64,000 nucleotides of DNA from assembly GCA_965216945.1 (NCBI GenBank), contig CBDCGU010000003.1, forward strand, positions 2,440,382-2,504,381, written 5' to 3'. This DNA comes from Acidimicrobiia bacterium. GTDB taxonomy: Bacteria; Actinomycetota; Acidimicrobiia; Spongiisociales; UBA5794. Shown here in pieces: positions 8,414 to 63,251 of this stretch. A program made the translations under genes and the position numbers. The notes beneath the pieces are model-generated. The model ran no database searches and was not told where the DNA came from. It was given only the letters and a program-made list of their open reading frames with translations. Position 1 is the stretch's first letter. Each line of letters opens with the position of its first letter.

Positions 8414-8442
8414 ACGTACCCTCCGTGGCCTATCGTCGCGCG

Positions 8443-24096: not shown

Positions 24097-25030
24097 CGCC
24101 GGTCTCGGCTTGGGTGCGGATGCGCGCCTGCTCGCGGATGCGACGCTTGGAGCGTTTGTTGAGCCAAGCCACGAGACCGGCGAGACCGATGAACCCGAAG
24201 AAGATCGTGAGGCCGATGAGCCAGTCGTTGCCACCGGAGGCTCCCTGGAGCGCCTCCGCTCTCAGTGCGTCCTGCCAGGCCTTCTCGATTTCAGCCCAGC
24301 GCTGCGGATCCGGGTCGCTGAGAACCTCGACACCGTGCTGGTCGACCGCCCATTGCACCATGTCCGAGAGCGGGGATTCCTGGAACTGAGGGTTCCATGA
24401 GTACACCGGTGGTTGAGCGGCCCAGGCCCAGTCGGTGGCTTCGATGCCTTGGCCACTGGGATCACGGAAGAAGGCGCCTCCTCGCATCTGGCTGTGGTGG
24501 AGCTCGAGCTTGCCGGCCGCCCGCGCCAGATACCACTGGCCGATGACGGTGGCCAGGGGCTCCGGATAACCCGCTGCACCCTGGCGTGCGGCCACGTCCC
24601 ACAACACGGCGTAGGCGAGACCAAACGCATTGGTCTCCGCAAACAGCCGGCTGTCGAGTGTGTTGACGTAGACGGTGCCATCTTCGTTGAACACGGCTGC
24701 GTGGAGGAGCTGGCCCTCCGGTACGAGTCCGGTCGCATCGAGGCCGTCCTCCGTGCCGAACACACACAGGCTGAGCGGCGGCACGGATCCGAAGTCCTCC
24801 TCGAGGACCCGGGCCATCGCCCCCGCTTCGTCGGCGAGCCGGAGCCCGAGACCGTCGCCGACCGAGGGGGTGGCGGAGACGACGAGCAGGTCGGTCTGGC
24901 CGGTGGAACGCCACTCGACGTCGGGGTACCGATCTCCGCACCCGGCGTGGGCCGGTGCGGCCACGGCGATGCCGACGGCGAACAGAGCCGCAACGAGGGC
25001 GGCGATTGCGGAGAGAGTGCGATACGCCAC
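24044..25030 (-). CDS. Secreted protein with a C-terminal membrane anchor, function unknown
   Basis: Signal peptide ...AVAAPAHAGC, a C-terminal helix WLIGLTIFFGFIGLAGLVAWL, and a basic tail. Confidence 0.6.
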   Translation of the reverse strand: MAYRTLSAIAALVAALFAVGIAVAAPAHAGCGDRYPDVEWRSTGQTDLLVVSATPSVGDGLGLRLADEAGAMARVLEEDFGSVPPLSLCVFGTEDGLDATGLVPEGQLLHAAVFNEDGTVYVNTLDSRLFAETNAFGLAYAVLWDVAARQGAAGYPEPLATVIGQWYLARAAGKLELHHSQMRGGAFFRDPSGQGIEATDWAWAAQPPVYSWNPQFQESPLSDMVQWAVDQHGVEVLSDPDPQRWAEIEKAWQDALRAEALQGASGGNDWLIGLTIFFGFIGLAGLVAWLNKRSKRRIREQARIRTQAETGATARTSAAASPATPRHD

Positions 25031-25144
25031 GGCTCCATCGTATCGGGGGGCGGACCGGTTGTGGCCGAGGTCGGTCCTGCGGATAGGGCCGGACGGCCCG
25101 CTGTGCGGCGGAGGTCGTGCATTGTTTCACTAAATTGCTGTGAC

Positions 25145-25762
25145 GTGAGACCATCCATCCCGCCCGCCACCGTGTCGCGGCTCCCGATCTATCTGCGGAC
25201 GCTTGCCGATCTTCCGGCATCCCAGGCCACGTGCTCATCGGAGCAGATGGCGTCGCTCGCAGGCGTGAACTCGGCCCAGGTGCGCAAAGACTTGTCGTTT
25301 CTGGGATCACATGGGACTCGCGGGGTCGGCTACGGCATCGCCGAACTGCGCGATCAGCTACGGCGTGCGCTGGGTCTGACGACCGAATACGCCGTCATGA
25401 TCGTGGGCGCAGGGAATTTGGGCAGCGCGCTGAGCAACTATGGCGGCTTTGGAACGTGGGGCTTCGAGGTCGTGGCGATTGTGGACGCCGACCCGGCGAA
25501 GATCGGCACCACCGTTGCCGGCATCCCAGTCGAACCCATCGACACCCTGGAGCAGATCGTTGCGCAGCGCGCCGTGCAGATCGCCATCATCGCCACCCCG
25601 TCCCGTGCCGCCCAGGAGGTCGCCAACCGGGTGATCGGGTCGGGAGTGCGCTCGATCCTCAACTTCGCACCGGCGGTGCTGGACGTGCCCGAGGGCGTCA
25701 AGGTTCGTCGGGTCGATCTGTCCACCGAGCTGCAGATCCTCACCTACCACCTGCAGCATTAG
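25145..25762 (+). CDS. rex: Redox-sensing transcriptional repressor Rex
   Basis: GTG 25145 within ORF 24413..25762. The product has TVSRLPIYLRTL, SSEQMASLAGVNSAQVRKDLSFLG, the Rossmann motif IVGAGNLGSAL, and ILNFAP. Confidence 0.85.
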   Translation: MRPSIPPATVSRLPIYLRTLADLPASQATCSSEQMASLAGVNSAQVRKDLSFLGSHGTRGVGYGIAELRDQLRRALGLTTEYAVMIVGAGNLGSALSNYGGFGTWGFEVVAIVDADPAKIGTTVAGIPVEPIDTLEQIVAQRAVQIAIIATPSRAAQEVANRVIGSGVRSILNFAPAVLDVPEGVKVRRVDLSTELQILTYHLQH

Positions 25763-25877
25763 CCGGGCCACCTGTGGCACGAGGGCCGGCATGGACGGCG
25801 GGCGTGGCGGACGGGCGATGCGAGGTCGACACGGGCTGTGATCGATGCCCGGTCGCCGGTACCCGGTCCGGCTCCGC

Positions 25878-26393
25878 TCAGGCTGCGGCGTCTTCTCGCT
25901 CGTAGCGGTCGAGGGCGACGACGAACATCACGAAGAGCACGAAGGACGCCAAGGTGACTGCGATCGCCGGTATCCGAATCTGGAAGGCGTTGAGCCCTTC
26001 CGTGTTCGCCGGACGCAGACCACGCGGTGCGTAGATCACGAAGAGCATGCTGCCGACCACCATCCAGCCGAAGGTGGCGGCGCCGGTGACGAGGAAGCCG
26101 AGGCGGGCACCCAGGTTGGTGTACAACAGGAGGTATCCCGTGCCGATGAAAGAGACGATGGCGACCACCGTGATCAGAATGCCGCGTGCTGCGATGGAGA
26201 AGTCCGAAGTCTCCCCCGTTGTGCCGTCGACTTGCTTGAAGACCGCGTCGTAGGCGTCGCCGAGCCAGGCCCGGAGCTGGGGGACGAACGCAAGGACGGA
26301 GATCACGATGGCGATGACGCCGATCCACTCCAGAGCCGACAGGCCACGCTCGTCGTGATGCAAACGCAAGGCGATCGGGTCGGTGTGCTTCAT
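25878..26393 (-). CDS. Polytopic membrane protein, last gene of the b6-type operon
   Basis: 171 aa from ATG 26393, which overlaps the cytochrome c stop. Four hydrophobic helices. The N-terminus ERGLSALEWIGVIAIVISVL resembles Flp/DUF4244 prepilin-like leaders. Confidence 0.6.
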   Translation of the reverse strand: MKHTDPIALRLHHDERGLSALEWIGVIAIVISVLAFVPQLRAWLGDAYDAVFKQVDGTTGETSDFSIAARGILITVVAIVSFIGTGYLLLYTNLGARLGFLVTGAATFGWMVVGSMLFVIYAPRGLRPANTEGLNAFQIRIPAIAVTLASFVLFVMFVVALDRYEREDAAA

Positions 26394-28051
26394 CACAGTG
26401 ACCTCTCGTAGGCGACGATGAGGGCGATGTCCTCGGCGCTGAGGATCTGTCCGAATCCGGGCATCCGTCCCGAGCCCAAGCCGTTGATGCCGTAGCTCTC
26501 GTTGTCGACGGTCCCGCGGATGACGAACTGGATCTGGTCCTCCACGTCGGGGAACTGGATGAGGGAGCGGCCGTCGAGCAGTGACGGTCCCCACGCACCG
26601 CTGCCGGCGCCCTGCTCGAAGGCAACTCCGGCCTGGTAGCCGCCGGTGTGGCAGCGGGCGCAGTATCCGTTGAACAGTCCGACCGCCCGCTCGGCCTCGC
26701 CGGTCGACAGCCCGGTTGCGGCAGCGACCTCGGCGAAGTCGACCTCCCACAACCGCTGCTCGGCGGACTCCTCCAAGAACGCCAGTCCGCTCTCGACCCT
26801 GTCGAGGAACACGTCCTGACGGTCGGTGATGACCCCGAGCGTGAGGTGCGCAGTGTCGAGATCCAGCAGGAAGGCCTCGGTTCGGGCCAGATCCTGGACC
26901 GGTGCTCCGGTGAGATCCGTTCCCGTGAACGCATTGTCGGGATCGAGTTCCAGCCCGTAGAGGTTGGTGAACGCCGGGTCCTGGATCATCTCGACTTCGG
27001 CGATGCGGTTGCCATCGTCGTCCAGCACGGGCGCTCCTTCGGCATCGACCCGATCGGTCACCTGGCGCACCATCACCGTGCTGTCGATGATTCCGCCGAT
27101 CTCGGTGAGGCGGCGTTCCACGTCGTCGGTCAGACCGTCGCGATCGGTGTCGGTGCCTGCTTCGCCGCAGCTCGATCCGACCGCAGACGCGGATGCCGGC
27201 GTGCACGTTCCGTCGCCGGCCATGAGGAACCGGATCTCGCCGGGGAAGTCTTCGATCACGGCAAACTGGGCCGGCGCCTCCTCGACATCCTCGACCGCAG
27301 CCTGCTGCTCGACGATCTGCCGGGCCACGGTGGCCTCTCCACCTGCGATGCGGGCGAGGGCGTCGGCGACGATGCCCTCGACCTCGTCCAGGGCCTGGCC
27401 CTGCGGGATCTGGATCGTCTCCAGGTATGCCATCACCTGATCGACTTCCTGCAACGTCATGGCACCGCCACCTTCGAGCCCGTTGGCGGGCATCGGCGTG
27501 CCGGCGCGTCCGAACTCGATCCAGTGCCTCACTTCGTCCTCGTCGAAGCGGAGGAACACGTCGTTGATCGACGGAGCGGTCCAGGCGACGTCGAGGCCGC
27601 TGCGTGCTTCGACGAACGGCGCAGCACCGCCACCGCCTTCAGGTCCGTGACAGTTGATGCACGAGAACGTGCTGTACCAGTGCTCGCCTTCCTCCACATC
27701 CTTCTCGTGGATCTTCTCGGCGGCGGCGATCTGGCGGTCGCCCTCGTTGATGAAGTAGACGGGCAGTGCCACTGCCAGCACTGCGGCCGAGACCACGGCG
27801 ACGTTGAGCACGCGTGTGATCCGATTCGTCTCGAGCTCGTCGTCCGACAGGTACGGCTGGAGGTTTTGCGGGGTCTCCTCGGCCAGGCGCGCCCGGCGCC
27901 GGCTGTTGATGAACAGGTAGCCGACCCACGCCAGGAAAGCCGCCGCCGCAAGCGTGAGTACGACCGATCCAACGCCCACGTTGGACGGTTCGACCGGTCC
28001 GTCCTCTGCGGCAACGGCCAGGAACGGCCGCAGAAGCTCGGTCACACGCAC
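26393..28051 (-). CDS. Membrane-anchored dihaem cytochrome c with a long inter-domain insert
   Basis: Two CxxCH motifs: CINCH at aa 131-135 and CARCH at aa 464-468. Two N-terminal helices. C-terminal GRMPGFG...IALIVAYERS. The GTG start overlaps the Rieske gene stop by 10 nt. Confidence 0.85.
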   Translation of the reverse strand: MRVTELLRPFLAVAAEDGPVEPSNVGVGSVVLTLAAAAFLAWVGYLFINSRRRARLAEETPQNLQPYLSDDELETNRITRVLNVAVVSAAVLAVALPVYFINEGDRQIAAAEKIHEKDVEEGEHWYSTFSCINCHGPEGGGGAAPFVEARSGLDVAWTAPSINDVFLRFDEDEVRHWIEFGRAGTPMPANGLEGGGAMTLQEVDQVMAYLETIQIPQGQALDEVEGIVADALARIAGGEATVARQIVEQQAAVEDVEEAPAQFAVIEDFPGEIRFLMAGDGTCTPASASAVGSSCGEAGTDTDRDGLTDDVERRLTEIGGIIDSTVMVRQVTDRVDAEGAPVLDDDGNRIAEVEMIQDPAFTNLYGLELDPDNAFTGTDLTGAPVQDLARTEAFLLDLDTAHLTLGVITDRQDVFLDRVESGLAFLEESAEQRLWEVDFAEVAAATGLSTGEAERAVGLFNGYCARCHTGGYQAGVAFEQGAGSGAWGPSLLDGRSLIQFPDVEDQIQFVIRGTVDNESYGINGLGSGRMPGFGQILSAEDIALIVAYERSL

Positions 28052-28908
28052 GACGGTCCCTGCGGGTAGGGAATCGTCTTGACCTTGGCCCGCGCCGTCT
28101 GCCTCACTTCTCCCGTCAGAACGATCAGCGAGCCCGAGTCGTCGACTTCGACGGCGAAGCGGTCCATGTTGCGGGGTGCCGGGCCCGACTCGTACTCACC
28201 GTGGAAGTTGTAGCGGGAGCCGTGGCACGGGCATTCGAATCCTTGCGACGGCACGCACGATGGGACACGACAGCCGAGGTGGACACATCGCTGCCACAGC
28301 GCCATGAGCCCCGGTTCGCCCCCCTCGGCCCCGGCCACGACATCGAGACCCTCGAACGAGCTCCCGGCGAGATCGCTCTCTGGGAAGGGGACGATCCAAC
28401 TCTGCGCCGCGGCGACGAACTTGGGGACGATCGACCCGTCGCTCTGCAGGATCTCGGCGCGCAACTCGTTGAGGGTGCCGACATTGATGGGCGTCCCGAA
28501 TCCGCCCTTGAGCTTCGGCCACATGAAGGCGAGACCGGCGATGGCGAACTGACCGAGGAAGATGCCGAAGAAGGCGAGCAGGGATCGGTTGAAGAACTTG
28601 CGCCGCTCGACTCCCATCTCCGCCGCGGTGAGCTCCTCTCGCTGCTCGAGCGGATCGACGGGCGGTGGTCCCGGCTCGGCGTGCTCGGCGGTCTCAGGTG
28701 GCGCCAGCAGGGCGACCGAGGACTCGGTGCCGCTCGCGGCGCGCACCTCGCGACCTTGCAGGTCGGCGCGCCTGGCGCGCTTGTCGAACTCGCCGGTGAT
28801 GGTGTCTTCTCCGCCGTCGCCCCGCCGGTACGCGATCGTCATCACGCTGATCGTCACCAGCAGCCCTGCGGCTGCCAGTCCGATGATGAAAGCTGCTGTA
28901 GCGCTCAT
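28042..28908 (-). CDS. Rieske [2Fe-2S] subunit
   Basis: CVHLGC and CPCHGS cluster boxes, an N-terminal helix, and an internal Tat-like ERRKFFNRSLLAF ahead of a second helix. Confidence 0.9.
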   Translation of the reverse strand: MSATAAFIIGLAAAGLLVTISVMTIAYRRGDGGEDTITGEFDKRARRADLQGREVRAASGTESSVALLAPPETAEHAEPGPPPVDPLEQREELTAAEMGVERRKFFNRSLLAFFGIFLGQFAIAGLAFMWPKLKGGFGTPINVGTLNELRAEILQSDGSIVPKFVAAAQSWIVPFPESDLAGSSFEGLDVVAGAEGGEPGLMALWQRCVHLGCRVPSCVPSQGFECPCHGSRYNFHGEYESGPAPRNMDRFAVEVDDSGSLIVLTGEVRQTARAKVKTIPYPQGPSCV

Positions 28909-28918
28909 GAGTCACCCA

Positions 28919-30037
28919 TCAGAAGTCGAAGAAGATGCCGTCTGCCCACGGGTATGTGAAGTTGAACCCCGGGCCGCGGAAGAATGAGCCATAGATCGTC
29001 AGGATCGCGGCAGAGAACAGGAAGAAGCTGAAGATCATGATCGCCAGCTTGCGGTCAGACGGTCGCACCGACGGGTTGCGGTCGATATAGGGGATCACGG
29101 CGAGGCCACCGAGCCCGAAGCCAGGTATGAGCACGCCGGCGACCTGGGGATCGAAGTAGGACAGCAGCTCCTGCAGCCCGAGGAAGTACCACGGCGCCTT
29201 CGACGGATTGGGCTGCTCATTGAAGTTGGCGAACTCGAGCAGCGGAGCGTCGACGAACACGGAGAAGACGAACAACGCTGCGGTGCAGATCATCAAGGCC
29301 ACGAACTCGATGGCCACCAGATGCGGCCACGTGTTGACCTTGTCGGTGGGTTCGGCCTTGACCTGCTGGATCGCACCGGCCTTGACGACGGTCAGCAGGC
29401 GCTGGGTGCGCACCCCCTCGGGGATGGTGGGTGCGGCAGCGGGGGCCGCGGCGGCGCCGGCGGCGGTCGCCACAGTCGCCGGAACGGGTGCAGGGGTCGC
29501 TTCGCCGGCGAATTGCGGCGCTGGTGTGCCATCCCACTTGGCACGTGCGAGGGCGGCGCGGCGCAGCAAGTCGGTGGGAACACCGTATTCGGCGGATTCG
29601 GCAGCGAGATCCCGCACGGGGCCACCCCCGGCTGCGGGGGCTGCGGCCGGTGCGGCCGGCTGCGCCTGCGGTGCGGCTGCGGCGGCGGGCTCTGCGGTGG
29701 CTGCGGCGGGCGGTACAGCGGCGCCGGTCATCTCGGCGAGCATCGCTTCGACGCTGACACCCTTGGCCTTCGCCTTGGCTTCCACCGATCGCCGGAAGAG
29801 CGACTCCGGGATACCTGCAGCCTCGGCGGCTGCCGCCATGTCGGGCGGCCCCGCAGCAGTGGCAGGTGGAGCGGCCTCCGCTTCTGCCACGGGCGCGGGG
29901 GCTGCGGGTTCGGGGGCTGCAGGCGCGGGCGGTTCCTCGCCCTTCATCTCGGCGAGTACTTCCTCGACCGTGCGCCCCTCTGCCTTGGCTCTCGCCTCGG
30001 CGGAGCGCCGGAGGATATGTTCGGGAATCTCAGCCAC
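28919..30037 (-). CDS. Cytochrome b6f subunit-IV-like protein (cytochrome b C-terminal part) with a ~235-aa repeat-containing N-terminal extension
   Basis: GTG 30037 lies 5 nt after AAGGAG, which overlaps the b6 TAA. The C-terminal core TWPHLVAIEF...NPSKAPWYFLGLQELL... parallels PetD AWPNDLLY...PEWYFFPVFQILR, recalled from memory. Confidence 0.8.
   Translation of the reverse strand: MAEIPEHILRRSAEARAKAEGRTVEEVLAEMKGEEPPAPAAPEPAAPAPVAEAEAAPPATAAGPPDMAAAAEAAGIPESLFRRSVEAKAKAKGVSVEAMLAEMTGAAVPPAAATAEPAAAAAPQAQPAAPAAAPAAGGGPVRDLAAESAEYGVPTDLLRRAALARAKWDGTPAPQFAGEATPAPVPATVATAAGAAAAPAAAPTIPEGVRTQRLLTVVKAGAIQQVKAEPTDKVNTWPHLVAIEFVALMICTAALFVFSVFVDAPLLEFANFNEQPNPSKAPWYFLGLQELLSYFDPQVAGVLIPGFGLGGLAVIPYIDRNPSVRPSDRKLAIMIFSFFLFSAAILTIYGSFFRGPGFNFTYPWADGIFFDF
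29522..30037 (-). repeat. Three copies of a ~30-aa helical module separated by Ala/Pro-rich linkers (coding repeat)
   Basis: IPEHILRRSAEARAKAEGRTVEEVLAEM / IPESLFRRSVEAKAKAKGVSVEAMLAEM / VPTDLLRRAALARAKWDG read in the translation. Confidence 0.85.
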
Positions 30038-30045
30038 AGCGCTCC

Positions 30046-30828
30046 TTACAGCGGACCGGAGATGCCGCCGTCCTTGCGCACCCGCCAGAAGTGCACCGCC
30101 ATGAAGATGACGATGACGAACGGCAGGAACAGGACATGGAGAACGTACCAGCGCAGCAGCGTGTCGGGTGTGATCTGTACGCCGCCGATCAACGCAAATG
30201 ACACTTGGTCGCCGATGACAGGGCTGTAGGCCGCCATGTTGGAACCGACGGTGACCGCCCACAACGCCAGCTGGTCCCACGGCAAGAGGTAGCCGGTGAA
30301 GGACAGAAGCAGCGTGAGCAGCAGGAGGATGACGCCGACGACCCAGTTGAACTCCCGGGGTGGTTTGTATGCGCCGTGATAGAACACACGTGCCATGTGG
30401 AGGAACACCGTGAGCACCATGGCGTGGGCACCCCAGCGGTGCATGTTGCGAACGAGCTGGCCGAACGCCACGTCGGTGGCCAGCGCCTGGATGTCTTGGA
30501 AGGCCTGCGGCGACGTGGGTCGGTAGTAGAACATCAGGAAGATGCCGGTGATCGTCAGCAAGATGAAGAGGAAGAAGCTGAGGCCACCGAGACACAAGGT
30601 GTAGGAGAGCCGAACCCCGTGCCGCTTCACCTTCACCGGGTGCAGGTGATAGAGCACGTTGTTCATGATCACGTAGGAGCGGTTGCGGGGGCTGTCCGAG
30701 TACCCGTGCCTGAACGGGGACCCGGGACGGAAGATGCTGGACCACGCCTGGCTGGAGCGGATGTGATCGCCCACCTCGGCGAGGCGATCCTTCAGCCCGA
30801 CCCGGCCGTTGCCATCTCCGTTCGCCAC
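30046..30828 (-). CDS. Cytochrome b6 (split cytochrome b, N-terminal four-helix part)
   Basis: Both His pairs are present with the right spacing ([21 protein letters not shown]; [19 protein letters not shown]). Also YLLPWDQ, a C-terminal [10 protein letters not shown] as in plastid b6, and YTLCLGG containing the haem ci cysteine. Confidence 0.9.
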
Positions 30829-30899
30829 CTCTGCTCCCTCGTGTGCTTCTTCGGCGCCGGCAGTTTCACCGACAGGCGCCGCTGGTCAAAATCCCGCTC

Positions 30900-31346
30900 C
30901 TACCAGCGCATGCCGTAGGAGTAGCCGTTCTTGAAGTCACGCTGTTGAGTGTTGTACTCCCACGGTTTTAGCTCGAATTCCTGCGCCTGATCTGCCAGGG
31001 AGCCGGCGAACTTGCCAAGCGTGATCACGCCCGTCGGGCAGCGGTCGATGCAGAGCGCACAGCGGGTGCACTCGTCCTCGTCGACGAGGAAGAATCCCTG
31101 GTTCTCGGCGGTGTCGCCAGGGTTGTCGACATTGGTGCCTTCTGCGATGGCGTCGAGCGACAGGTAGTGGATGCACTTCCACGGGCAGATGTCGACGCAG
31201 CCTTCGCACAGGATGCACTCCGATTGGTCGATGTGGAGGAACTGCTTCGGTTTGACCGCCGCCTTCAGGTACTCGCCATCCACCGCGGCGAGCTGATAGT
31301 CGTCGCGCATCGGCGGTGTCTCGAACCAGATGTCGGTCTTGGCCAC
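30900..31346 (-). CDS. Soluble 2x[4Fe-4S] ferredoxin-domain protein
   Basis: CILCEGCVDICP and CTRCALCIDRCP. No hydrophobic helix or signal peptide. GTG 31346 lies 8 nt after the upstream stop; ATG 31310 is an alternative. Confidence 0.8.
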   Translation of the reverse strand: MAKTDIWFETPPMRDDYQLAAVDGEYLKAAVKPKQFLHIDQSECILCEGCVDICPWKCIHYLSLDAIAEGTNVDNPGDTAENQGFFLVDEDECTRCALCIDRCPTGVITLGKFAGSLADQAQEFELKPWEYNTQQRDFKNGYSYGMRW

Positions 31347-31354
31347 GGCGCCCG

Positions 31355-31963
31355 CTACCTCTCGACCTTGGTGAGGGGCCGGCCGTACGTCGACACGGGC
31401 TGCGGTGGCGGTGCCGACTCGGCCCGCTTCTGGTATTCCTGCCACTGGTACATCACGACGGCAGTACCCCCGAGCACCACCACGGCGTACGTGCCGGAGA
31501 CGATGTCCTTGACGGCGGCATAGCTGATGGAGACCTCGTTGTTGAGGACGAGCCACGACGGGATCGTCACGGCGGTCTTCTGCGGGGTCCATTCCCACAC
31601 GGATTGGGTGAGGGTGAGCCACTCGTTGGGCACGATGCCGAAAAGGATCATCATCACCGAGACGAACACCAGCGCACCGACCGCGGCACGCGCCCACGTC
31701 ATCGGCCGCTTGTAGAGGAACGCCAGGCAGATCCCACCCAACAGGACGAACGCGCCGCCCAGCGAGATGATCTGACCGATGACGACCGGAAGCCATCCGC
31801 GGGGAATCGACGGGTAGAGGTCGCGGCCGAGACTGTCGGTCTCCGGTAGCCCGGTGAAGTGGGCGATCAACGCCCCGCCGATGGCGACGAGCGTGCCAAC
31901 CACGATGGCGGCGGCACCCATCTGCTGAAATCGACGTATCTCTCTGTCGGTCGTTGCTGCCAT
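31355..31963 (-). CDS. Four-helix membrane protein, first gene of the b6-type operon, unknown family
   Basis: 202 aa from ATG 31963 (GGCGAGG upstream): MAATTDREIRRFQQMGAAAIVVG... with four hydrophobic segments. The upstream part of ORF 31355..32584 was discarded. Confidence 0.6.
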   Translation of the reverse strand: MAATTDREIRRFQQMGAAAIVVGTLVAIGGALIAHFTGLPETDSLGRDLYPSIPRGWLPVVIGQIISLGGAFVLLGGICLAFLYKRPMTWARAAVGALVFVSVMMILFGIVPNEWLTLTQSVWEWTPQKTAVTIPSWLVLNNEVSISYAAVKDIVSGTYAVVVLGGTAVVMYQWQEYQKRAESAPPPQPVSTYGRPLTKVER

Positions 31964-32126
31964 TGCCTCGCCTGGGCGCGTCCGATCGCTCGCTTGGGTG
32001 CGACATTCTATCCACGGCCGTCGACACTCTGTAGTCGGCTCGGCCGGAGATCGACGTCCGACCCGAACCTCGTCTCTCAGGCCATTGCAACGGGTGCTTC
32101 TACCCCATCCCCTAACGTGATCCGCA

Positions 32127-33359
32127 GTGAAGCTGCGCACCCGCATCGAGCGAATTCGGGACAGCCAGTTCGTGGTCCCAGTCGTCTTCATCGTGCTCAG
32201 CATCATTCTCGTGGTGGTGACGACCCAGCTGGACGAGCACGTCAGTCCGCCGGATCTGCTCATCCCCGCCAAGATCGGTGGTGTGCGCACGCTGCTGGCC
32301 ACCGTCGCCGGCTCGATCATCACTGCGGCCGCCCTGGTGTTTTCGTTCTCGGCGATCACGGTGCAGCTGGCCTCGAGCCAGTATTCACCCCGCCTGGTGC
32401 AGGAGTTCCTGCGCGATCGCGTCCAGCAGTCCATCGCCGGGCTCGTCATGGGGACGTTCACATTCGCCCTGACCTCGCTGGCCACACTCGGCGTCAACAC
32501 CTCCGACGAAGCGCGGACCGATTGGACGGCGACGACGGCGGTGGTGCTCGGCGTGGCCAGTGCGGTCTCGATCGTCGTATTCATCGATCACATCACTCGC
32601 CGCATCCGGATCGACGACACGATTCGTCGCATCACGATGCGGACCGTGGCAACGTTCGAAGCCGCCGGCGGTGGCGCCGCGGTCGCCGCCGATGGCTGGA
32701 ACCTGCAGCCGGAGACCAGGTCGTCGTGCGTGCGTTCCGCCGAGACGGGATTCATTCAGGAGATCGAATGCGATCGGCTGGTGGAAGCGCTGCAACCGGG
32801 GATCGTGGCCCGGCTCGACGTCTGGACGGGCGGTTTCGTCGCCGAAGGCGGCAGGCTCCTCACCGTCTGGACGGAACGGGCCGCACCGGCGCCCGCAGCG
32901 CTTCGAGAGTTCATCGCGGTGGGCGACACGAGGACGATCGAGCGGGACCCCGAACACGGCATCCGCCAGTTGGTCGACATCGGCCTGCGTGCCTTGTCGC
33001 CGGGAGTCAACGATCCGGCGACGGCTGCCGACGTCGCTCGCAACCTCGCGCTGTGTGTCCGAGCGGCATATCTCGTGGGTCCGCCGACCCGCGTGTGGGT
33101 ATCCGGCAACGGGGCGCGGCTGTTCGCTCCTCACGCCCGTGGGCCCAGCGACCACGTTGCCGTGGCGTACGAGCCCATACGGCGGAAAGCAGCGGATGAG
33201 CCAATGGTGCTCGGTGCGATCGTCGAGTCCTTGGAGTCCCTGGCCGACGAGCTGGAGGAGCGGGAGATCGACGCTACCGCCATCGACCGTGAGGTGGCGG
33301 CCGCTTCAGCCACGCTGCGTGAGCTCGGCGAGCCGGTCGCCGGCTCGCAACCGCAGTGA
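32127..33359 (+). CDS. DUF2254-family membrane protein
   Basis: 410 aa. N-terminal helices with AITVQLASSQYSPRL and a soluble C-terminal domain, as recalled for DUF2254. Confidence 0.75.
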   Translation: MKLRTRIERIRDSQFVVPVVFIVLSIILVVVTTQLDEHVSPPDLLIPAKIGGVRTLLATVAGSIITAAALVFSFSAITVQLASSQYSPRLVQEFLRDRVQQSIAGLVMGTFTFALTSLATLGVNTSDEARTDWTATTAVVLGVASAVSIVVFIDHITRRIRIDDTIRRITMRTVATFEAAGGGAAVAADGWNLQPETRSSCVRSAETGFIQEIECDRLVEALQPGIVARLDVWTGGFVAEGGRLLTVWTERAAPAPAALREFIAVGDTRTIERDPEHGIRQLVDIGLRALSPGVNDPATAADVARNLALCVRAAYLVGPPTRVWVSGNGARLFAPHARGPSDHVAVAYEPIRRKAADEPMVLGAIVESLESLADELEEREIDATAIDREVAAASATLRELGEPVAGSQPQ

Positions 33360-33431: not shown

Positions 33432-33803
33432 TCAGGTGACGACGAAACGTACAGTTGGCCGGCCTGCCTCGGACGTCAGCTCCACGTCCGCAGCGACCGC
33501 CCGGAGGACCATCTGCCCGAGCGAGGTCTCCGCTGGCGGCCACGAATCCAGGGTCGGCGGCGCGCCGGTGGCGGCGACGCTGACGGCGAGACCTCGCTGG
33601 GCTGCGAACGCCTCGCACACGAGCTCGCCGCCCATTCCCAACTCGAGCAGCGCCGTGCTCGCCTCGTCGATGGCGAGACCGAGCTCGTCCATCTTGTCGT
33701 AGCCCATATCGACCTCTGCGGCGGCGCCGCTGGCGACGGAGCGTACGACCCGAACGGCTTCCGGTCGGGCGGGAACTTCGAGGCGGAAGACCGGGGGTGT
33801 CAT
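33432..33803 (-). CDS. Short RsbW-like anti-sigma-factor homologue lacking recognisable ATP-binding boxes
   Basis: 123 aa from ATG 33803: MTPPVFRLEVPARPEAVRVVRSVASGAAAEV...LGLAIDEASTALLE. It resembles the N-terminal half of HATPase-type anti-sigma factors, but no DxGxG or GxGxG box is present. Confidence 0.5.
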   Translation of the reverse strand: MTPPVFRLEVPARPEAVRVVRSVASGAAAEVDMGYDKMDELGLAIDEASTALLELGMGGELVCEAFAAQRGLAVSVAATGAPPTLDSWPPAETSLGQMVLRAVAADVELTSEAGRPTVRFVVT

Positions 33804-33818
33804 GGATTCGTATACTAC

Positions 33819-33838
33819 GGGGTGGTTGACGCCACCCC
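33819..33838. promoter_or_regulatory. Inverted repeat GGGGTGG-ttgacg-CCACCCC in a 54-bp divergent intergenic region
   Basis: Perfect 7-bp arms read directly. The spacer contains a TTGAC -35-like element. Confidence 0.4.
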
Positions 33839-33857
33839 ATGACGAACGAGGCGACCG

Positions 33858-34196
33858 ATGCCCCCGCAACTCACGATCGAGGAATCCACCGACGGAACGC
33901 ACGTCGTTCTCGCCGTCGTCGGTGAGATCGACCTTGCCACTGCGGCGGAGTTCGAGGCGAGGATCGAATCAGCCGGCAGTGCCGCCTCCATCGTCCTCGA
34001 TATGACGCAAGTCGCGTTCATCGATTCGACCGGCCTCAGGGTGCTCCTATCGGCACATGAGCGTGCCGACGACGGTGGCGGTCGACTTGCCATCGTCGCC
34101 GGCGAGGGTCCGGTGACCAAGCTCCTCGCCATCACCGGGGTGGACGAGTGGCTCAATGTCCACGAGACACGGAGCTCAGCCACATCGGATGGCTGA
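33858..34196 (+). CDS. STAS-domain anti-sigma-factor antagonist (RsbV/SpoIIAA-like)
   Basis: 112 aa. VLAVVGEIDLATAAEF, the phospho-serine context FIDSTGLRVLL, and KLLAITGVDE. Confidence 0.85.
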   Translation: MPPQLTIEESTDGTHVVLAVVGEIDLATAAEFEARIESAGSAASIVLDMTQVAFIDSTGLRVLLSAHERADDGGGRLAIVAGEGPVTKLLAITGVDEWLNVHETRSSATSDG

Positions 34197-34551
34197 GCCC
34201 TCCGAGTACCGCCTGCATCTCCCGGCCTCCGCCGAATCCGTTGCGCTGGCGCGTCTCTTCCTCGCGACCGTGTTGCGTACTCACCATGTCGATGAAGCCG
34301 CCGTGGACGATGCCAAGCTCGCCGTGTCGGAGCTGGCTACCGAGTGCGTGGTCAACGGGCCGAGTGATCGGTTCTCGGTCGTGGTCGCCCCGGCAACGGA
34401 GCTCTTTCGCGTCGAGGTCGGGCCGCTGACGCTCGGCGAAGCCGCCGACCGCAGCGAGCGTGTCCACCTCGCCCGAGCGTTGTTTCCGTCGATGGAGCTC
34501 GATCCGGTGACGCACACCGCCATGTACACGATCGCTGCCGCCGAGTCGTGA
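34189..34551 (+). CDS. Second short RsbW-like anti-sigma-factor homologue, degenerate N-box, no G-boxes
   Basis: ATG 34189 overlaps the STAS gene end by 8 nt, and the stop overlaps the sigma gene start (GTGA). LAVSELATECVVNG stands where kinases carry ELxTNAxxH. Confidence 0.5.
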   Translation: MAEPSEYRLHLPASAESVALARLFLATVLRTHHVDEAAVDDAKLAVSELATECVVNGPSDRFSVVVAPATELFRVEVGPLTLGEAADRSERVHLARALFPSMELDPVTHTAMYTIAAAES

Positions 34552-35279
34552 CCGACGCAGAGCTGGAGTTGTTCCAGCAGCGGGACGATCCGGTTGCGCG
34601 TGCACGCCTCGTTGCTGCCTACGAAGGTATCGCGATACGGCTTGCCGCCCGGTATCGAGGACGGGGCGAGCCCGAGGACGACCTCCAGCAGGTCGCCCGC
34701 CTTGGACTTCTCAACGCCATAGACCGCTTCGACGCAGACTACGGCGTCAAGTTCGCCACCTATGCGACGCGCACGATCGTGGGCGAGCTGAAGCGACACC
34801 TGCGGGACAGGACCTGGTCGATCCGGGTGCCCCGGTCGTTGCAGGAGCGCTGGCTGGAGACGAACCGAGCGGCCGAGGATCTCACTCACCGGCTCCACCG
34901 CTCTCCCACGGTCGACGAGATCGCAGCGGAGATCGGAGCGAGCCGGGACGAGGTGCTCGAAGCCATGGATGCGGGAAGTGCGTACACGGCTGGCTCGTTG
35001 GATGTGCCGGTTGGGTCTGAGGACGGCGATGCCGTCCTCGCCGATCGCCTCGGCGCCATCGACGCAGACCTGGAGACAGCAGGACCGTGGGCGTTCGCCG
35101 TCGAACAGATTCGGGCGCTGCCCGCCAGGGAGAGAGCGATCCTCGTGATGCGGTTCTTCGAAGACAAGTCGCAGACCGAGATCGCCGAAGCGATCGGGGT
35201 CTCCCAGATGCACGTGTCCCGCCTGCTCCGACGCAGCTTGAGCAAGCTGCGTGAGACGTCGGGCGCCGGAGGGGTCTGA
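34548..35279 (+). CDS. Group-3 sigma-70 factor (SigB/SigF type)
   Basis: 243 aa. Region 2 DDLQQVARLGLLNAIDRFD...FATYATRTIVGELKRHLRD and region 4 ILVMRFFEDKSQTEIAEAIGVSQMHVSRLL. Confidence 0.85.
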   Translation: MTDAELELFQQRDDPVARARLVAAYEGIAIRLAARYRGRGEPEDDLQQVARLGLLNAIDRFDADYGVKFATYATRTIVGELKRHLRDRTWSIRVPRSLQERWLETNRAAEDLTHRLHRSPTVDEIAAEIGASRDEVLEAMDAGSAYTAGSLDVPVGSEDGDAVLADRLGAIDADLETAGPWAFAVEQIRALPARERAILVMRFFEDKSQTEIAEAIGVSQMHVSRLLRRSLSKLRETSGAGGV

Positions 35280-40474: not shown

Positions 40475-40654
40475 GCACGCCCCCTCCCGAGAGGGCACTG
40501 CTGCCTGAAGCCTCGCGCGTAAAGACGCGGGACGGGCGGTCCGATGTGCCTGCACTTTGTTCTTACCGGCCAACCTCGTAGGCTGCCCGCCGCCACGGTT
40601 GCGTGGCGTGGGAAGGCTGCCAGACGCAGAGGAACCGCCGCGGTGACGTCCGAC

Positions 40655-42577: not shown

Positions 42578-42581
42578 CATC

Positions 42582-43490
42582 GTGGAACAGCTGATCGCTC
42601 AAATCGCCGAGATGCACGGCTACCCCGCCGAGATGGTGGAGCGGGCCGCAGCTGCGCGCGCCGGGGCCATGGGTGTCGGCATCGAGCAGGTGTTGCAGCA
42701 GTGGGCGGGTGGCGACGCCGCCCCGGTGGCGCCGGTGGCGCCGGCGGCTGCACCCGAGGCTACGGCACCGGAGTCATCCCTGCCGGCCGAGTCTGCGGCG
42801 CCTGCGCCAGACGAGGCACCGGGCGGCCCGGAGGTCGAGGTGCTCGGCCCGGTCGCCGGCGACGAGACACCCGATGATGATGCTGGCGAACCGGCAGTAC
42901 CCGAGGCGGCCGAGCGCAGAGTCCCGCAGGGATCGGTCGTGTCGGGTTTCCCGCGCTGGCTGGTGGCAGCGTTCGTCATCATCCCGGCCATCGCCCTGCT
43001 CTATCTGATGCAGGCTCCCGACGGCCCCGATTGCGGTGTCGCCGGCCAGCTGGCGCTCGATCCCGTCAGCGGGGAGGCCGTGAACTGCGACGGCACTCCA
43101 TACGGTGTGGAGGTCGTCAACTTCTTCTCGATGGGCCAGGAGATCTACGACACCCGTTGTTCGGCGTGCCACGGAGCCGGCGGTGGCGGTGGCGCTGGGC
43201 AGGTTCTCGCCGGTGGAGCAGTGCTCGCCAGCTTCCCGAGTGGCAGCTGCCTCGAGCACATCGATTGGGTGGCGTTGGGTTCGGACAACTGGCCTGATCC
43301 CACCTACGGTGCACTCGCCAAACCCGTGGGCGGCTTCGGCCAGATGCCTGGATTCGAGGGCACGCTCACGGAGGAGGAGATCGCCTCGGTGGTCCTCTAT
43401 GAGCGGGTGGCCTTCGGCGGCGAGGCCCTGCCCGACGCCGAAGCCGACTGTCAGGTCACGGACGCCGCGGAAGTGTCCGCAGCGCCCTGA
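42582..43490 (+). CDS. Membrane-anchored monohaem cytochrome c (CcoP-like position) with an N-terminal helical module
   Basis: GTG lies 4 nt after the upstream stop. The product has an N-terminal YPAEMVERAAAARAGAMGVGIEQVLQQW, an Ala/Pro linker, the helix WLVAAFVIIPAIALLYL, CSACH, and GQMPGF...VVLYERV. Confidence 0.75.
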   Translation: MEQLIAQIAEMHGYPAEMVERAAAARAGAMGVGIEQVLQQWAGGDAAPVAPVAPAAAPEATAPESSLPAESAAPAPDEAPGGPEVEVLGPVAGDETPDDDAGEPAVPEAAERRVPQGSVVSGFPRWLVAAFVIIPAIALLYLMQAPDGPDCGVAGQLALDPVSGEAVNCDGTPYGVEVVNFFSMGQEIYDTRCSACHGAGGGGGAGQVLAGGAVLASFPSGSCLEHIDWVALGSDNWPDPTYGALAKPVGGFGQMPGFEGTLTEEEIASVVLYERVAFGGEALPDAEADCQVTDAAEVSAAP

Positions 43491-44504: not shown

Positions 44505-44519
44505 ATGACAAGGTGTCAT
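44505..44519. promoter_or_regulatory. Perfect palindrome ATGACA-agg-TGTCAT in an unusually AT-rich stretch
   Basis: Read directly. It lies between the divergent LysM-protein gene and ctaA. Confidence 0.4.
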
Positions 44520-44662
44520 ATCATGAAATGAGCGTTGAACAATCTTATATGCCTAAGCCTGGGCAGACTCCCGAACGGCGCGGCCCACGAGGGAACGGTC
44601 TCCGTCGTAGCGAGTCGTCCCCGGAAGCGGTAAGGCCGCGGCGGTCGGGTACGCTTGCCGCG

Positions 44663-58373: not shown

Positions 58374-58446
58374 GCGTCGCCTTACCCGGCAGCGTGGCGG
58401 GGACGCCGGCCGTCGCACGCCGGGTTCCCGTGGCGGGGGCCGGAGA

Positions 58447-59757: not shown

Positions 59758-59767
59758 GCAGCCGGAC

Positions 59768-63246: not shown

Positions 63247-63251
63247 TCTGA

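Follow-up and report, generated by a model that had tools for sequence, protein, structure and literature searches.

On the minus strand of the 64,000-nucleotide stretch of DNA analysed here (hereafter the window), seven genes, which we refer to as g1 to g7, are packed between positions 25878 and 31963. They encode a membrane protein (g1, 31355-31963, 202 aa), a soluble iron-sulfur protein (g2, 30900-31346, 148 aa, with a GTG start), cytochrome b6 (g3, 30046-30828, 260 aa), subunit IV (g4, 28919-30037, 372 aa), a Rieske protein (g5, 28042-28908, 288 aa), a dihaem cytochrome c (g6, 26393-28051, 552 aa) and a second membrane protein (g7, 25878-26393, 171 aa). From g1 to g7, the gaps amount to 8, 71, 8 and 10 nt, followed by overlaps of 10 and 1 nt; the ORFs and translations of the window reproduce exactly both the tight spacing and the gene content reported in a preliminary description of the locus. 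Gene content was assigned by searches with Pfam and NCBIfam profiles, and transmembrane (TM) helices by a hydropathy scan. Between g1 and a divergent DUF2254 gene there is an intergenic region of 163 nt (31964-32126), in which the promoter of the operon is presumed to lie; this assignment is made from position only, because a simple scan of positions 25000-32600 revealed no sigma-70 consensus promoter.

The centre of the operon encodes a split cytochrome b. The product of g3 matches the Pfam Cytochrome_B family (166 bits), exhibits four conserved haem-ligand histidines with b6-type spacing (pairs H130/H144 and H231/H246), and its C-terminus can be aligned with the RKQ-GISGPL end of the cyanobacterial b6 (PDB 7r0w). 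A covalently bound haem cn is predicted from the CxGG motif, present as TLCLGG, and an N-terminal extension of ~75 residues, which is highly conserved, contains the motif YHLHP. Among the solved structures, b6 proteins are the closest (168 bits vs 82 bits for QcrB), in agreement with the earlier view of a split b6-type core unlike qcrCAB. In g4, the part that matches Pfam Cytochrom_B_C (subunit IV) is the final ~135 residues; it follows an N-terminal extension of ~235 residues, has three TM helices and contains the Qo motif. In the PDB, g4 has only weak similarity to cytochrome b and subunit IV. The Qo motif had been read as APWY, correctly, and in the form 'PSKAPWYFLGLQE' it recurs in 70 of the 71 sequences examined. 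In the extension (29497-30037, minus strand) the translation reveals three copies of the repeat 'IPExLxRRSxEAxAKAxG..VEe.LAEM', with Ala/Pro-rich linkers between them, and this region has no match in Pfam or PDB. A looser version of the repeat motif, P-x2-hydrophobic x2-x-R-[SA]-x2-[AS]-[KR]-A, is found in 0-2 copies per orthologue, often at residue 5.

A split cytochrome b, the APWY Qo motif and the CxGG haem-cn motif are the hallmarks of the "APWY clade" that Kao & Hunte described in 2014 (PMC4122944) and that already took in the acidimicrobial Ilumatobacter. Judged by these motifs, the core encoded in the window is a member of this clade and so already described, and by its shared features it most likely also belongs to the "subfamily G" of Dibrova et al. 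In a neighbor-joining tree of b6 proteins, calculated without bootstrap values, the Acidimicrobiia group with the Chloroflexota, whose complexes appear to be the closest relatives. The score of g3 against the NCBIfam profile of ExtP (NF040969; 309 bits, cut-off 290) would also fit an Ext-type system like extOPQ of Geobacter, for which a role in the reduction of selenite/tellurite or of extracellular metals has been suggested, but g4 attains just 56 bits against ExtQ, under the cut-off of 150, and the cells of Acidimicrobiia, being of the Gram-positive type, have no outer-membrane conduit. Besides, the operon in the window does not encode the 4- to 12-haem cytochromes, the porin and the rhodanese that define the Ext cluster (PMC5877670). 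We regard such a function as extremely improbable; the ExtP match most likely reflects common membership in the APWY clade.

The g5 protein possesses a Pfam Rieske domain for a [2Fe-2S] cluster, with the cluster boxes CVHLGC and CPCHGS, two TM helices and a twin-arginine motif (ERRKFF) ahead of the second helix. In the PDB, it is most similar to two Rieske proteins of anammox bacteria, Kuste4569 (9rk4) and Kustd1480 (9rk3), with PetC of b6f next in rank. The g6 protein is membrane-anchored, with two N-terminal TM helices and two cytochrome c domains (Pfam Cytochrom_C and Cytochrome_CBB3; haem motifs CINCH and CARCH) separated by >200 residues; it has no sequence match in the PDB. The length of g6 orthologues ranges from 331 to 568 aa, and two CxxCH motifs are present in 64 of the 65 sequences examined.

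The protein encoded by g2 has no TM helices and comprises a Fer4 dicluster domain (Pfam Fer4 families) with two CxxCxxCxxxCP motifs; 77 of 78 orthologues retain both motifs intact, and all eight cluster cysteines are conserved. Its identification as NuoI can be ruled out, because the window holds a separate NuoI at 63252-63914. It can be aligned (33% identity, E 2e-15) with residues 504-611 of a 611-aa protein whose gene immediately precedes b6 in a Chloroflexota locus (L081), a GltD-like NAD(P)/FAD oxidoreductase composed of Fer4_20, Pyr_redox_2 and Fer4 domains. A g2-like domain is located directly upstream of b6 in 77 of the 80 'Ca. Limnocylindrales'/Chloroflexota loci, in which b6 is 58-60% identical to that of the window and precedes subunit IV and Rieske in unchanged order, and the fused protein also adjoins an APWY-type b6 in loci of Chloroflexia (L225), Nitrospirae (L229) and a 'delta proteobacterium' (L233). 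On the strength of this alignment, g2 corresponds, in stand-alone form, to the C-terminal 2x[4Fe-4S] domain found in a GltD-like NAD(P) oxidoreductase subunit; Acidimicrobiia have retained the iron-sulfur domain but not the flavin/NAD(P) module. A cytoplasmic-side iron-sulfur oxidoreductase is a known companion of such complexes (PMC5600118; PMC12954380): NAD(P)-binding iron-sulfur oxidoreductases are found together with the cytochromes b of subfamily G (PMC5600118), and in AlphaFold3 models of the anammox complexes the oxidoreductase subunit is placed on the negative (cytoplasmic) side and wired to the b6 haems via iron-sulfur clusters (PMC12954380). A gene for a cytoplasmic-side iron-sulfur protein is absent from ~75 of the 80 diverse APWY-clade loci sampled, and also from Ktedonobacterales; since most of the sampled operons lack it, such a subunit would be dispensable for the core reaction.

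Each of the two remaining membrane proteins has four TM helices. In g1, residues W90, D153 and Q175 are invariant (alignments A1 and A2) and the cytoplasmic C-terminal tail contains a conserved S-x-[YF]-G-R-P motif; only 265 homologues were found, none with a functional name, and the few organism labels among the matches listed are all Acidimicrobiia or Actinomycetota. It has no sequence match in Pfam, NCBIfam or the PDB, and its AlphaFold2 model (pLDDT 88) has no match among PDB folds (best E 0.17, TM-score <0.3). The conserved three-helix core of g7, 'YTNLGxRLxFLVxGAxxFGW...YAPRG' (alignment A3), is accompanied by an extra N-terminal helix with a Flp-prepilin-like motif (G/xxxxE-W) and, in Ilumatobacteraceae and Microthrixaceae, by an insert of ~100-200 aa. 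This protein has no match in Pfam or NCBIfam, its AlphaFold2 pLDDT is only 71, and of its 1058 homologues, those among the matches listed are all 'hypothetical' except for one labelled 'Flp pilin'. Both g1 and g7 have only unnamed homologues of the Acidimicrobiia type, and no family or fold match.

Small membrane proteins of no known fold, with a few invariant aromatic or charged residues, as g1 and g7 are, could be maturation factors, and it is conceivable, albeit unlikely, that g1, g2 and/or g7 are co-transcribed for maturation or assembly (e.g. to attach haem cn covalently, as functional counterparts of the CCB system, or to deliver cofactors). In that case, only b6, subunit IV, the Rieske protein and the dihaem cytochrome c would make up the working complex. 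Related APWY-clade operons function without g1 and g7 and, to our knowledge, non-photosynthetic lineages with haem ci lack the known CCB factors. However, there is no Pfam match to the CCB1, CCB2/4 or YGGT families, and the b6 of Chloroflexota carries CxGG (78/78), yet no homologue of g1 or g7 is found nearby. As for g2, the corresponding subunit of the anammox models is structural and carries electrons, and eight conserved cluster cysteines are expected of a redox wire.

Essentially every Acidimicrobiia locus retrieved contains all seven genes in an identical order, and the gene order and tight spacing were found again in ~80 species-level genomes. Among the Acidimicrobiia loci with sufficient flanks, synteny is retained for g1 in 67/69 (upstream of g2), g2 in 75/75, g4 in 66/68, g5 in 64/65, g6 in 61/63 and g7 in 55/58, with median intergenic distances of -4 to 17 nt. 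Conservation reaches ~95-100% of the 65-80 sequences examined for each of the following: the YHLHP and TLCLGG motifs, the histidine pairs, the Rieske boxes, the two CxxCH and the two [4Fe-4S] motifs. The seven-gene operon is the standard arrangement in Acidimicrobiia, and the composition that the preliminary description had regarded as non-canonical for an actinobacterium is the norm for the lineage to which the window belongs. On the other hand, its suggestion that three extra genes go with the core is borne out by their synteny (55-75 of 58-75 flanked loci) and the short gaps, and the survey of phylogenetic co-occurrence that it had proposed gave a positive result, because the order of the genes is kept in essentially all the Acidimicrobiia loci retrieved. 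Such synteny suggests that g1, g2 and g7 are physically associated with the core.

Our preferred explanation, to which we assign a probability of roughly 65%, is that in Acidimicrobiia these seven genes make up the operon for an APWY-clade complex of the b6 type. This complex most likely functions in respiration as a menaquinol:cytochrome c oxidoreductase and would carry an iron-sulfur subunit at its cytoplasmic side. Respiratory genes in the window include nuo genes, CtaA, CtaB, a CcoN-CcoO-like oxidase with cytochrome c, and Rex. In the proposed mechanism, quinol would be oxidised at the outer-face site, the first electron passing via Rieske and the dihaem cytochrome c to a terminal oxidase, and the second one reaching haem cn across the membrane by way of haems bL and bH. 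The g2 protein would dock at the cytoplasmic face, with the conserved N-terminal extension of b6, the N-terminus of subunit IV and the tail of g1 as candidate contacts, and its two clusters would link haem cn to a putative cytoplasmic redox partner, as an exit for electrons or as an entry into the quinone pool. The g1 and g7 proteins would be additional subunits within the membrane or, possibly, would assist in assembly.

Kao & Hunte noted that, owing to the proline in APWY, the carboxylate ligand is lost; they suggested non-standard operation and, as a speculation, a reverse mode of working for APWY complexes (PMC4122944). Instead of acting chiefly as a Q-cycle complex III, the complex might carry out quinol-driven bifurcation, as proposed for the anammox complexes, with the downhill flow from Rieske via cytochrome cc to O2 driving the second electron uphill from haem cn through the g2 clusters to a putative low-potential acceptor in the cytoplasm, or, in the opposite direction, g2 might be a ferredoxin-type entry to the menaquinone pool. 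The alignment of g2 with the iron-sulfur domain of an NAD(P) reductase subunit, the similarity of the g5 Rieske to the high-potential anammox Rieske proteins and the conserved haem cn site are all compatible with this possibility, but g2 lacks the flavin/NAD(P) module, and neither the operon nor its surroundings revealed a gene for a partner of g2. Moreover, Acidimicrobiia are mostly described as aerobic heterotrophs, which need an ordinary complex III, and we consider both modes quite improbable.

Under the preferred reading as a menaquinol:cytochrome c oxidoreductase, a class-wide operon of Acidimicrobiia would encode a quinol-oxidising respiratory complex of the b6 type, not of the bc type usual in actinobacteria. 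The preliminary description had envisaged a new variant of the Rieske/cytochrome b family; this does not apply to the core, which belongs to a clade known since 2014, but it may stand for the additions, as we found in the searchable literature no description of the reduction of an oxidoreductase subunit to a bare dicluster ferredoxin, of the two membrane proteins with only unnamed Acidimicrobiia-type homologues, or of the repeat-bearing extension of g4. Compared with qcrCAB of Actinomycetes, the operon in the window is of the b6 type, and the NCBIfam profiles of QcrB, QcrA and QcrC score only 112, 23 and 23 bits, below their cut-offs of 500, 275 and 200. Whereas Chloroflexota possess the fused oxidoreductase of 611 aa beside b6, Acidimicrobiia have g2, a bare dicluster protein of 148 aa. 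The anammox Rieske/cytochrome b complexes, in turn, include a subunit similar to the Chloroflexota NAD(P)/FAD oxidoreductase, and its iron-sulfur part resembles FwdF (PMC12954380); FwdF polyferredoxins are also the best PDB matches of g2.

ORF listing and start-codon analysis placed the seven genes of the operon, numbered g1 to g7 in transcription order, on the minus strand at 31355-31963 (g1, 202 aa), 30900-31346 (g2, 148 aa), 30046-30828 (g3, 260 aa), 28919-30037 (g4, 372 aa), 28042-28908 (g5, 288 aa), 26393-28051 (g6, 552 aa) and 25878-26393 (g7, 171 aa), with gaps of 8, 71, 8 and 10 nt between the first five and overlaps of 10 and 1 nt between the last three. Pfam and NCBIfam identified five of the seven products, namely a 2x[4Fe-4S] ferredoxin-like protein (g2), cytochrome b6 (g3), a subunit IV homologue (g4), a Rieske protein (g5) and a dihaem cytochrome c (g6), while g1 and g7 encode membrane proteins without a family. 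A hydropathy scan assigned four transmembrane helices each to g1 and g7, none to g2, three to g4 and two each to g5 and g6; it flagged three in g3, whose fold has four. ORFs, Pfam, NCBIfam and motifs bear out in every detail the number, spacing and content of the genes given in the preliminary description.

The b6 encoded in the window is 97% identical to that of metagenome-assembled genomes of Acidimicrobiia. Scanning one genome per species gave over 570 b6 relatives, and the best 80, which we took for comparison, come from Acidimicrobiia, including Ilumatobacteraceae, Microthrixaceae, Iamiaceae, sponge-associated lineages, OM1 and acIV. According to tblastn and ORF-level blastp with the seven proteins, nearly all these loci carry the genes on a single strand in the order g1 to g7. 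Counting only loci with sufficient flanking sequence, g1 was found in 67/69, g2 in 75/75, g4 in 66/68, g5 in 64/65, g6 in 61/63 and g7 in 55/58, with median intergenic distances across the Acidimicrobiia loci of -4 to 17 nt. The flanking ferredoxin and membrane protein genes are thus syntenic in relatives, and the survey of co-occurrence finds all seven genes together in nearly all Acidimicrobiia loci; the cluster is a class-wide standard of Acidimicrobiia, not an oddity of a single genome. Literature searches found no description of this conserved seven-gene architecture. Two Ilumatobacteraceae loci (L016 and L032) also contain an orphan b6 paralogue (78% identical, match at 8001-8768 of the locus) with intact CxGG motif and C-terminus and with the other six genes absent nearby; in L016, the one inspected, it follows a multi-pass membrane protein of about 900 aa and precedes a sigma-factor-like gene.

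The product of g3 (Pfam Cytochrome_B, 166 bits) carries the histidine pairs expected for haems bL and bH, H130/H144 and H231/H246. The columns of H130 and H144 are at least 95% conserved and the helix-D pair is present in 80/80 sequences examined, while the 14 residues between H231 and H246 correspond to the helix-D spacing of b6-type proteins. Cytochrome b is split between two ORFs, g3 and g4, with 8 nt between them. The best PDB matches of g3 are cyanobacterial and plastid b6 (168 bits), followed by mitochondrial cytochrome b (119) and actinobacterial QcrB (82), and the plastid-like C-terminus noticed earlier (11 residues) is indeed present and aligns with the end of cyanobacterial b6. With the NCBIfam b6 model PRK03735, g3 scores 219 bits, under the cut-off of 325. 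The CxGG motif, in the form TLCLGG, occurs in 79/80 Acidimicrobiia b6 sequences, and from this motif we predict a covalent haem cn (ci) on its cysteine. Conservation exceeds 95% in the N-terminal extension (residues ~27-78), which contains YHLHP and is a candidate docking surface; since YHLHP is found throughout the clade, also in operons that lack an iron-sulfur gene, it is not specific to g2. In anammox b6, His43 and His62, possible equivalents of the YHLHP histidines, are the proposed ligands of an extra haem b.

The Qo motif APWY lies on the g4 polypeptide, where it reads PSKAPWYFLGLQE in 70/71 sequences examined. This protein begins with an extension of about 235 residues, cytoplasmic by analogy with subunit IV, in which three helix-rich copies of a repeat (IPExLxRRSxEAxAKAxG..VEe.LAEM; 29497-30037, minus strand) are joined by Ala/Pro-rich linkers. 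A looser form of the repeat motif is found in 0-2 copies in Acidimicrobiia orthologues, often at residue 5, and no Pfam or PDB match was obtained for the repeats. The Rieske protein (Pfam Rieske) has the boxes CVHLGC and CPCHGS, conserved in 66-67 of the 68 sequences examined, and its best PDB matches are Rieske proteins of anammox bacteria (9rk4, 9rk3). The two cytochrome c domains of g6, with haem motifs CINCH and CARCH, are separated by more than 200 residues and make it a dihaem protein of class-I type, for which no PDB sequence match was found.

Split cytochromes b that carry CxGG have been grouped in the APWY clade, with members in delta-Proteobacteria (including a Geobacter complex), Chloroflexi, Nitrospirales, Planctomycetes, two deep Firmicutes and a few Actinobacteria, among which Ilumatobacter coccineum (Acidimicrobidae) is named explicitly (Kao & Hunte 2014, PMC4122944). 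By its APWY and CxGG motifs, the core of the operon belongs to a clade described in 2013-2014 with an acidimicrobial member already included, and the suggestion that the operon represents an undescribed variant does not hold for the core (PMC4122944); it stands for the seven-gene architecture, the bare ferredoxin and g1/g7, of which no description was found. Kao & Hunte stated that no member of the clade had been characterized (PMC4122944), and our literature searches found none that has been purified or mechanistically characterized. A subfamily G of mostly short cytochromes b (Dibrova et al. 2013/2017) co-occurs with large NAD(P)-binding iron-sulfur oxidoreductases, e.g. in the anammox clusters Kuste4569-74 and Kustd1480-85 (Dibrova et al. 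2017, PMC5600118). Judging from their shared sequence features, the APWY clade and subfamily G are most likely the same grouping.

An exhaustive search with g3 against representatives of 50%-identity clusters yielded non-acidimicrobial relatives at 45-60% identity, and the closest of those with a readable subunit IV part carry APWY. A diverse set of 80 APWY loci was obtained by a genome scan with one representative (P0175, itself without a close match in the collection) and includes Nitrospirota, Binatia, Terriglobia, Planctomycetota, Latescibacterota and others. These relatives (51-62% identity) have LHLHP in 78/80, APWY in 76/80 and CxGG in 63/80 cases. A neighbor-joining tree, built without bootstrap values and without the published reference set, places the Acidimicrobiia b6 beside Chloroflexota, amid other APWY lineages. 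A further candidate was a system like the Geobacter Ext cluster extHIJKLMNOPQS, with multihaem cytochromes ExtKL, M, N and S, porin ExtI and rhodanese ExtH (PMC5877670). Here g3 exceeds the cut-off of the ExtP model (309 vs 290 bits), but ExtQ is under its own (56 vs 150 bits), and the operon has no multihaem cytochromes, porin or rhodanese, its sole cytochrome c being dihaem. We rejected an Ext system on these grounds and regard an Ext-like function as highly improbable; since the Geobacter complex falls within the APWY clade (PMC4122944), the ExtP match most likely reflects shared clade membership, and the label "selenite/tellurite reduction ExtP" is misleading for g3.

The g2 product consists of Fer4 domains only (Pfam), and both its [4Fe-4S] motifs are intact in 77/78 orthologues, which indicates that the clusters are under selection. 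Its origin is illuminated by the closest non-acidimicrobial b6 relative (58% identity), which led to 80 Chloroflexota loci, mostly from 'Ca. Limnocylindrales'. A g2-like domain is encoded immediately upstream of b6 in 77/80 of them, followed by b6, subunit IV (with APWY) and Rieske, as in the window. In one such locus (L081) the upstream gene encodes a GltD/DPD-like, FAD/NAD(P)-binding protein of 611 aa, composed of Fer4_20, Pyr_redox_2 and a C-terminal dicluster domain; g2 aligns with its residues 504-611 (33% identity, E 2e-15) over a stretch that includes the two cluster motifs and their long intervening segment. The diverse APWY set usually has the order Rieske, b6, subunit IV without an iron-sulfur gene, and a GltD-ferredoxin fusion adjoins the core in just three of its loci, from Chloroflexia (L225), Nitrospirae (L229) and a 'delta proteobacterium' (L233). 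Ktedonobacterales show the order b6, subunit IV, Rieske and no GltD-ferredoxin gene. No GltD-like sequence is present anywhere in the 64-kb window.

The best PDB sequence matches of g2 are FwdF polyferredoxins. The iron-sulfur part of the anammox oxidoreductase likewise resembles FwdF, and the enzyme has been modelled on the negative (cytoplasmic) side of the membrane, with its iron-sulfur clusters wiring to the b6 haems (Hauser et al. 2025, PMC12954380). While the association of cytoplasmic-side iron-sulfur oxidoreductases with subfamily G cytochromes b is already published (PMC5600118), no description of such an oxidoreductase cut down to a bare ferredoxin was found in literature searches. 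We conclude that g2 corresponds to the iron-sulfur connector domain of a GltD-like oxidoreductase, encoded on its own and, in Acidimicrobiia, without the flavin/NAD(P) module. Identity of g2 with NuoI was considered and rejected, as the genuine NuoI is encoded at 63252-63914 in the nuo operon; one g2 homologue among the best 120 listed bears the name "NuoI", which is misleading here.

The sequences predict the full redox centres of a Rieske/b6 complex together with a dihaem cytochrome c; a pair of additional [4Fe-4S] clusters is predicted on the soluble product of g2, whose gene lies between g1 and b6. We favor the reading that the operon encodes a b6-type complex of the respiratory chain in which g2 is a subunit on the cytoplasmic side, and assign to it a probability of about 0.65. 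Menaquinol would be oxidized at the site on the outer face, one electron passing through Rieske and cytochrome cc to an oxidase and the second through bL and bH to haem cn, while g2 would dock on the cytoplasmic face and connect haem cn to the cytoplasm. The clusters of g2 might then serve as an electron exit, with bifurcation towards an acceptor of low potential as in the anammox proposal, or as an electron entry, with a ferredoxin-type donor feeding the quinone pool, a route long suspected in chloroplast b6f; they might also be a regulatory or structural remnant, and any specific direction of electron flow commands considerably less of our confidence than the overall reading. That the complex functions mainly in bifurcation or in reverse, which the anammox proposal and the kinship of g2 with its oxidoreductase would suit, seems to us improbable in an operon that has no flavin/NAD(P) module.

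The two membrane proteins have no counterpart among known families. No match to g1 was found in Pfam, NCBIfam or a profile search against PDB sequences, and its AlphaFold2 model, a confident one (pLDDT 88), has no fold neighbour in the PDB. It has 265 homologues, with no functional name among the best 120 listed and, where an organism label is given (in few cases), Acidimicrobiia or Actinomycetota as the source; their conserved core comprises the last three helices and a cytoplasmic tail S-x-[YF]-G-R-P. For g7, which likewise lacks a Pfam or NCBIfam match, 1058 homologues were obtained, and the best 120 listed are all 'hypothetical' except for one 'Flp pilin' (JGI). Those of the best 120 homologues of g7 that carry an organism label are from Acidimicrobiia or Actinomycetota, as are those of g2; because only the best 120 matches were listed for g2, g1 and g7, these labels say little about distribution outside the class. 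A core of three helices is conserved in g7, and the versions from Ilumatobacteraceae and Microthrixaceae contain a large insert, probably extracytoplasmic; the AlphaFold2 model (pLDDT 71) was too uncertain for a fold search. The N-terminus of g7 (26343-26393, minus strand) contains ERG-LSALEW, which fits the Flp-prepilin processing motif G/xxxxE[YW]; close homologues all have G17 and E22, and the Flp-like segment is missing from shorter orthologues. No description of g1 or g7 was found in literature searches. Alternatively, g1, g2 or g7 could be assembly factors; given the intact cluster motifs of g2 and its alignment with an oxidoreductase domain, we consider such a role rather unlikely.

The surroundings of the operon include further genes of respiration. 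At 40544-43490 (plus strand) a 677-aa ORF with COX1 (CcoN-like), FixO (CcoO) and cytochrome c domains looks from its domain content like a fused CcoN-CcoO haem-copper oxidase, which would be unusual for an actinobacterium, and a separate cytochrome c gene follows it at 42582-43490 (plus); this oxidase may be the electron acceptor of the b6 complex. CtaA (haem A synthase, COX15) and CtaB (haem O synthase, UbiA family) are encoded side by side at 44513-46527 (plus), which implies an aa3-type oxidase elsewhere in the genome, and the nuo (complex I) operon at 55763-63917 (plus) includes NuoC/D, NuoG, NuoH and NuoI, NuoC/D being recognized by its match to the 49-kDa subunit, with its ORF boundary unsettled. 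Together, the nuo, oxidase and haem genes make the window a respiratory gene neighbourhood. The redox-sensing repressor gene rex (25145-25759, plus) is convergent with the 3' end of the operon and adjoins it in only 3/80 related loci. No Rex operator was found near the operon promoter: the sole site in the window (25115-25132) has three mismatches, is not significant and lies upstream of rex itself. A scan for promoters and terminators gave nothing informative. A partner-switching module at 33432-35279, upstream of a divergent DUF2254 gene, comprises an anti-sigma-like HATPase_c_2 protein, a STAS anti-anti-sigma factor, a second HATPase_c_2 protein and a sigma-70-family factor.

Acidimicrobiia are abundant in fresh water (acIV), the ocean (OM1), sponges, soils and activated sludge (Microthrix), and their respiratory chain is usually taken to resemble that of Mycobacterium. 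The conserved operon suggests instead that they respire with a b6-type complex predicted to bear haem cn. A bolder and tentative proposal, which we think more probably wrong than right, is that this complex is their main respiratory quinol oxidase, with a permanently bound ferredoxin connected to haem cn and g1 and g7 as structural subunits. If true, it would provide a natural and genetically tractable case in which a b6-type complex and an iron-sulfur carrier of the cytoplasm exchange electrons directly, be it by ferredoxin-type input to the quinone pool or by bifurcation, driven by quinol, to a low-potential reductant under oxic conditions, and g1 and g7 would be subunits unknown until now, serving to hold the ferredoxin in place or to connect the complex with an oxidase. 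The stand-alone ferredoxin is a minimal version of the cytoplasmic module that is proposed to produce NAD(P)H in anammox bacteria, and it would sit on the very face where ferredoxin is suspected to feed haem cn in chloroplasts. The operon deserves attention because these bacteria are abundant and some of them can be grown in culture: Ilumatobacter and Iamia would offer aerobic hosts for structural and spectroscopic work on an iron-sulfur wire at haem cn.

Among known complexes, members of the APWY clade share with the operon separate b6 and subunit IV genes, APWY at Qo and CxGG; the papers on the clade and on subfamily G (PMC4122944, PMC5600118) deal with cytochrome b only and do not cover the seven-gene operon, the stand-alone ferredoxin, g1 or g7. 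Close counterparts are the complexes of Chloroflexota and of anammox bacteria (Kuste4569-4574, Kustd1480-1485; PMC12954380), which combine a b6-like cytochrome carrying haem cN with a subunit IV-like protein, a related Rieske protein and a cytoplasmic-side iron-sulfur subunit, whose dicluster domain aligns with g2 in Chloroflexota. In both, however, that subunit is a full GltD-like FAD/NAD(P) oxidoreductase of about 600 aa, whereas the Acidimicrobiia operon retains the 148-aa dicluster domain only. The order b6, subunit IV, Rieske is common only to the operon and Chloroflexota, most clade members having Rieske, b6, subunit IV; only g2-g5 counterparts were detected in the Chloroflexota loci, with no product like g1, g6 or g7. 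Instead of the dihaem g6, Chloroflexota have a monohaem cytochrome c fused to a cupredoxin (blue-copper) domain (10196-11290 in L081, 8162-9190 in L230, another related locus), and in L081 a membrane-anchored Kelch-repeat protein is encoded after it. In the anammox complexes, moreover, the cytochromes are hexa- or octahaem and subunit IV has five helices, in contrast to the dihaem c, the three-helix subunit IV with repeat extension, g1 and g7 of the operon. Complexome profiling has detected the anammox complexes, whose Rieske domains also have solved structures; anammox Rieske/cytochrome b complexes are reportedly also covered by Kartal 2013 and de Almeida 2016.

With the b6f complex of cyanobacteria and plastids (1VF5, 7R0W), g3 and g4 share the split, the 14-residue spacing in helix D, CxGG and the C-terminal ...RK-GISGPL. 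Unlike b6f, the operon has APWY rather than PEWY, a b6 N-terminus about 40 residues longer and neither cytochrome f nor PetG/L/M/N, as none of the seven products gave a Pfam hit to these proteins; its complex presumably works with menaquinol and would have a dedicated iron-sulfur subunit where b6f binds ferredoxin/FNR transiently. Haem cn of b6f has long been suspected to take electrons from ferredoxin in chloroplast cyclic electron flow. The b6c complexes of Firmicutes and heliobacteria are likewise menaquinol-oxidizing b6-type complexes of Gram-positive-type cells with covalent haem on b6 (predicted for the operon), and that of Heliobacterium also has a dihaem cytochrome c subunit (cf. PMC4122944). 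They differ in having PDWY instead of APWY at Qo and no ferredoxin subunit, g1 or g7, and in QcrABC of Bacillus cytochrome c is fused to subunit IV.

The QcrCAB complex of Mycobacterium and Corynebacterium comes from the same phylum and likewise includes a dihaem cytochrome c anchored in the membrane and a Rieske protein that has several helices and an internal Tat motif. Its QcrB, however, is unsplit, with at least eight helices, a PDWY-type Qo site and no haem cn, and its gene order is c, Rieske, b, whereas the operon has a split cytochrome b and the order b6, subunit IV, Rieske, c. The NCBIfam Qcr models score far below their cut-offs (NF050120, 112 bits vs 500; NF050121, 23 vs 275; NF050122, 23 vs 200), so that canonical qcrCAB was rejected on NCBIfam scores, PDB scores and gene order, in agreement with the initial reading. 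By analogy, QcrCAB nevertheless suggests that the complex encoded by the operon would hand over electrons directly to an oxidase.
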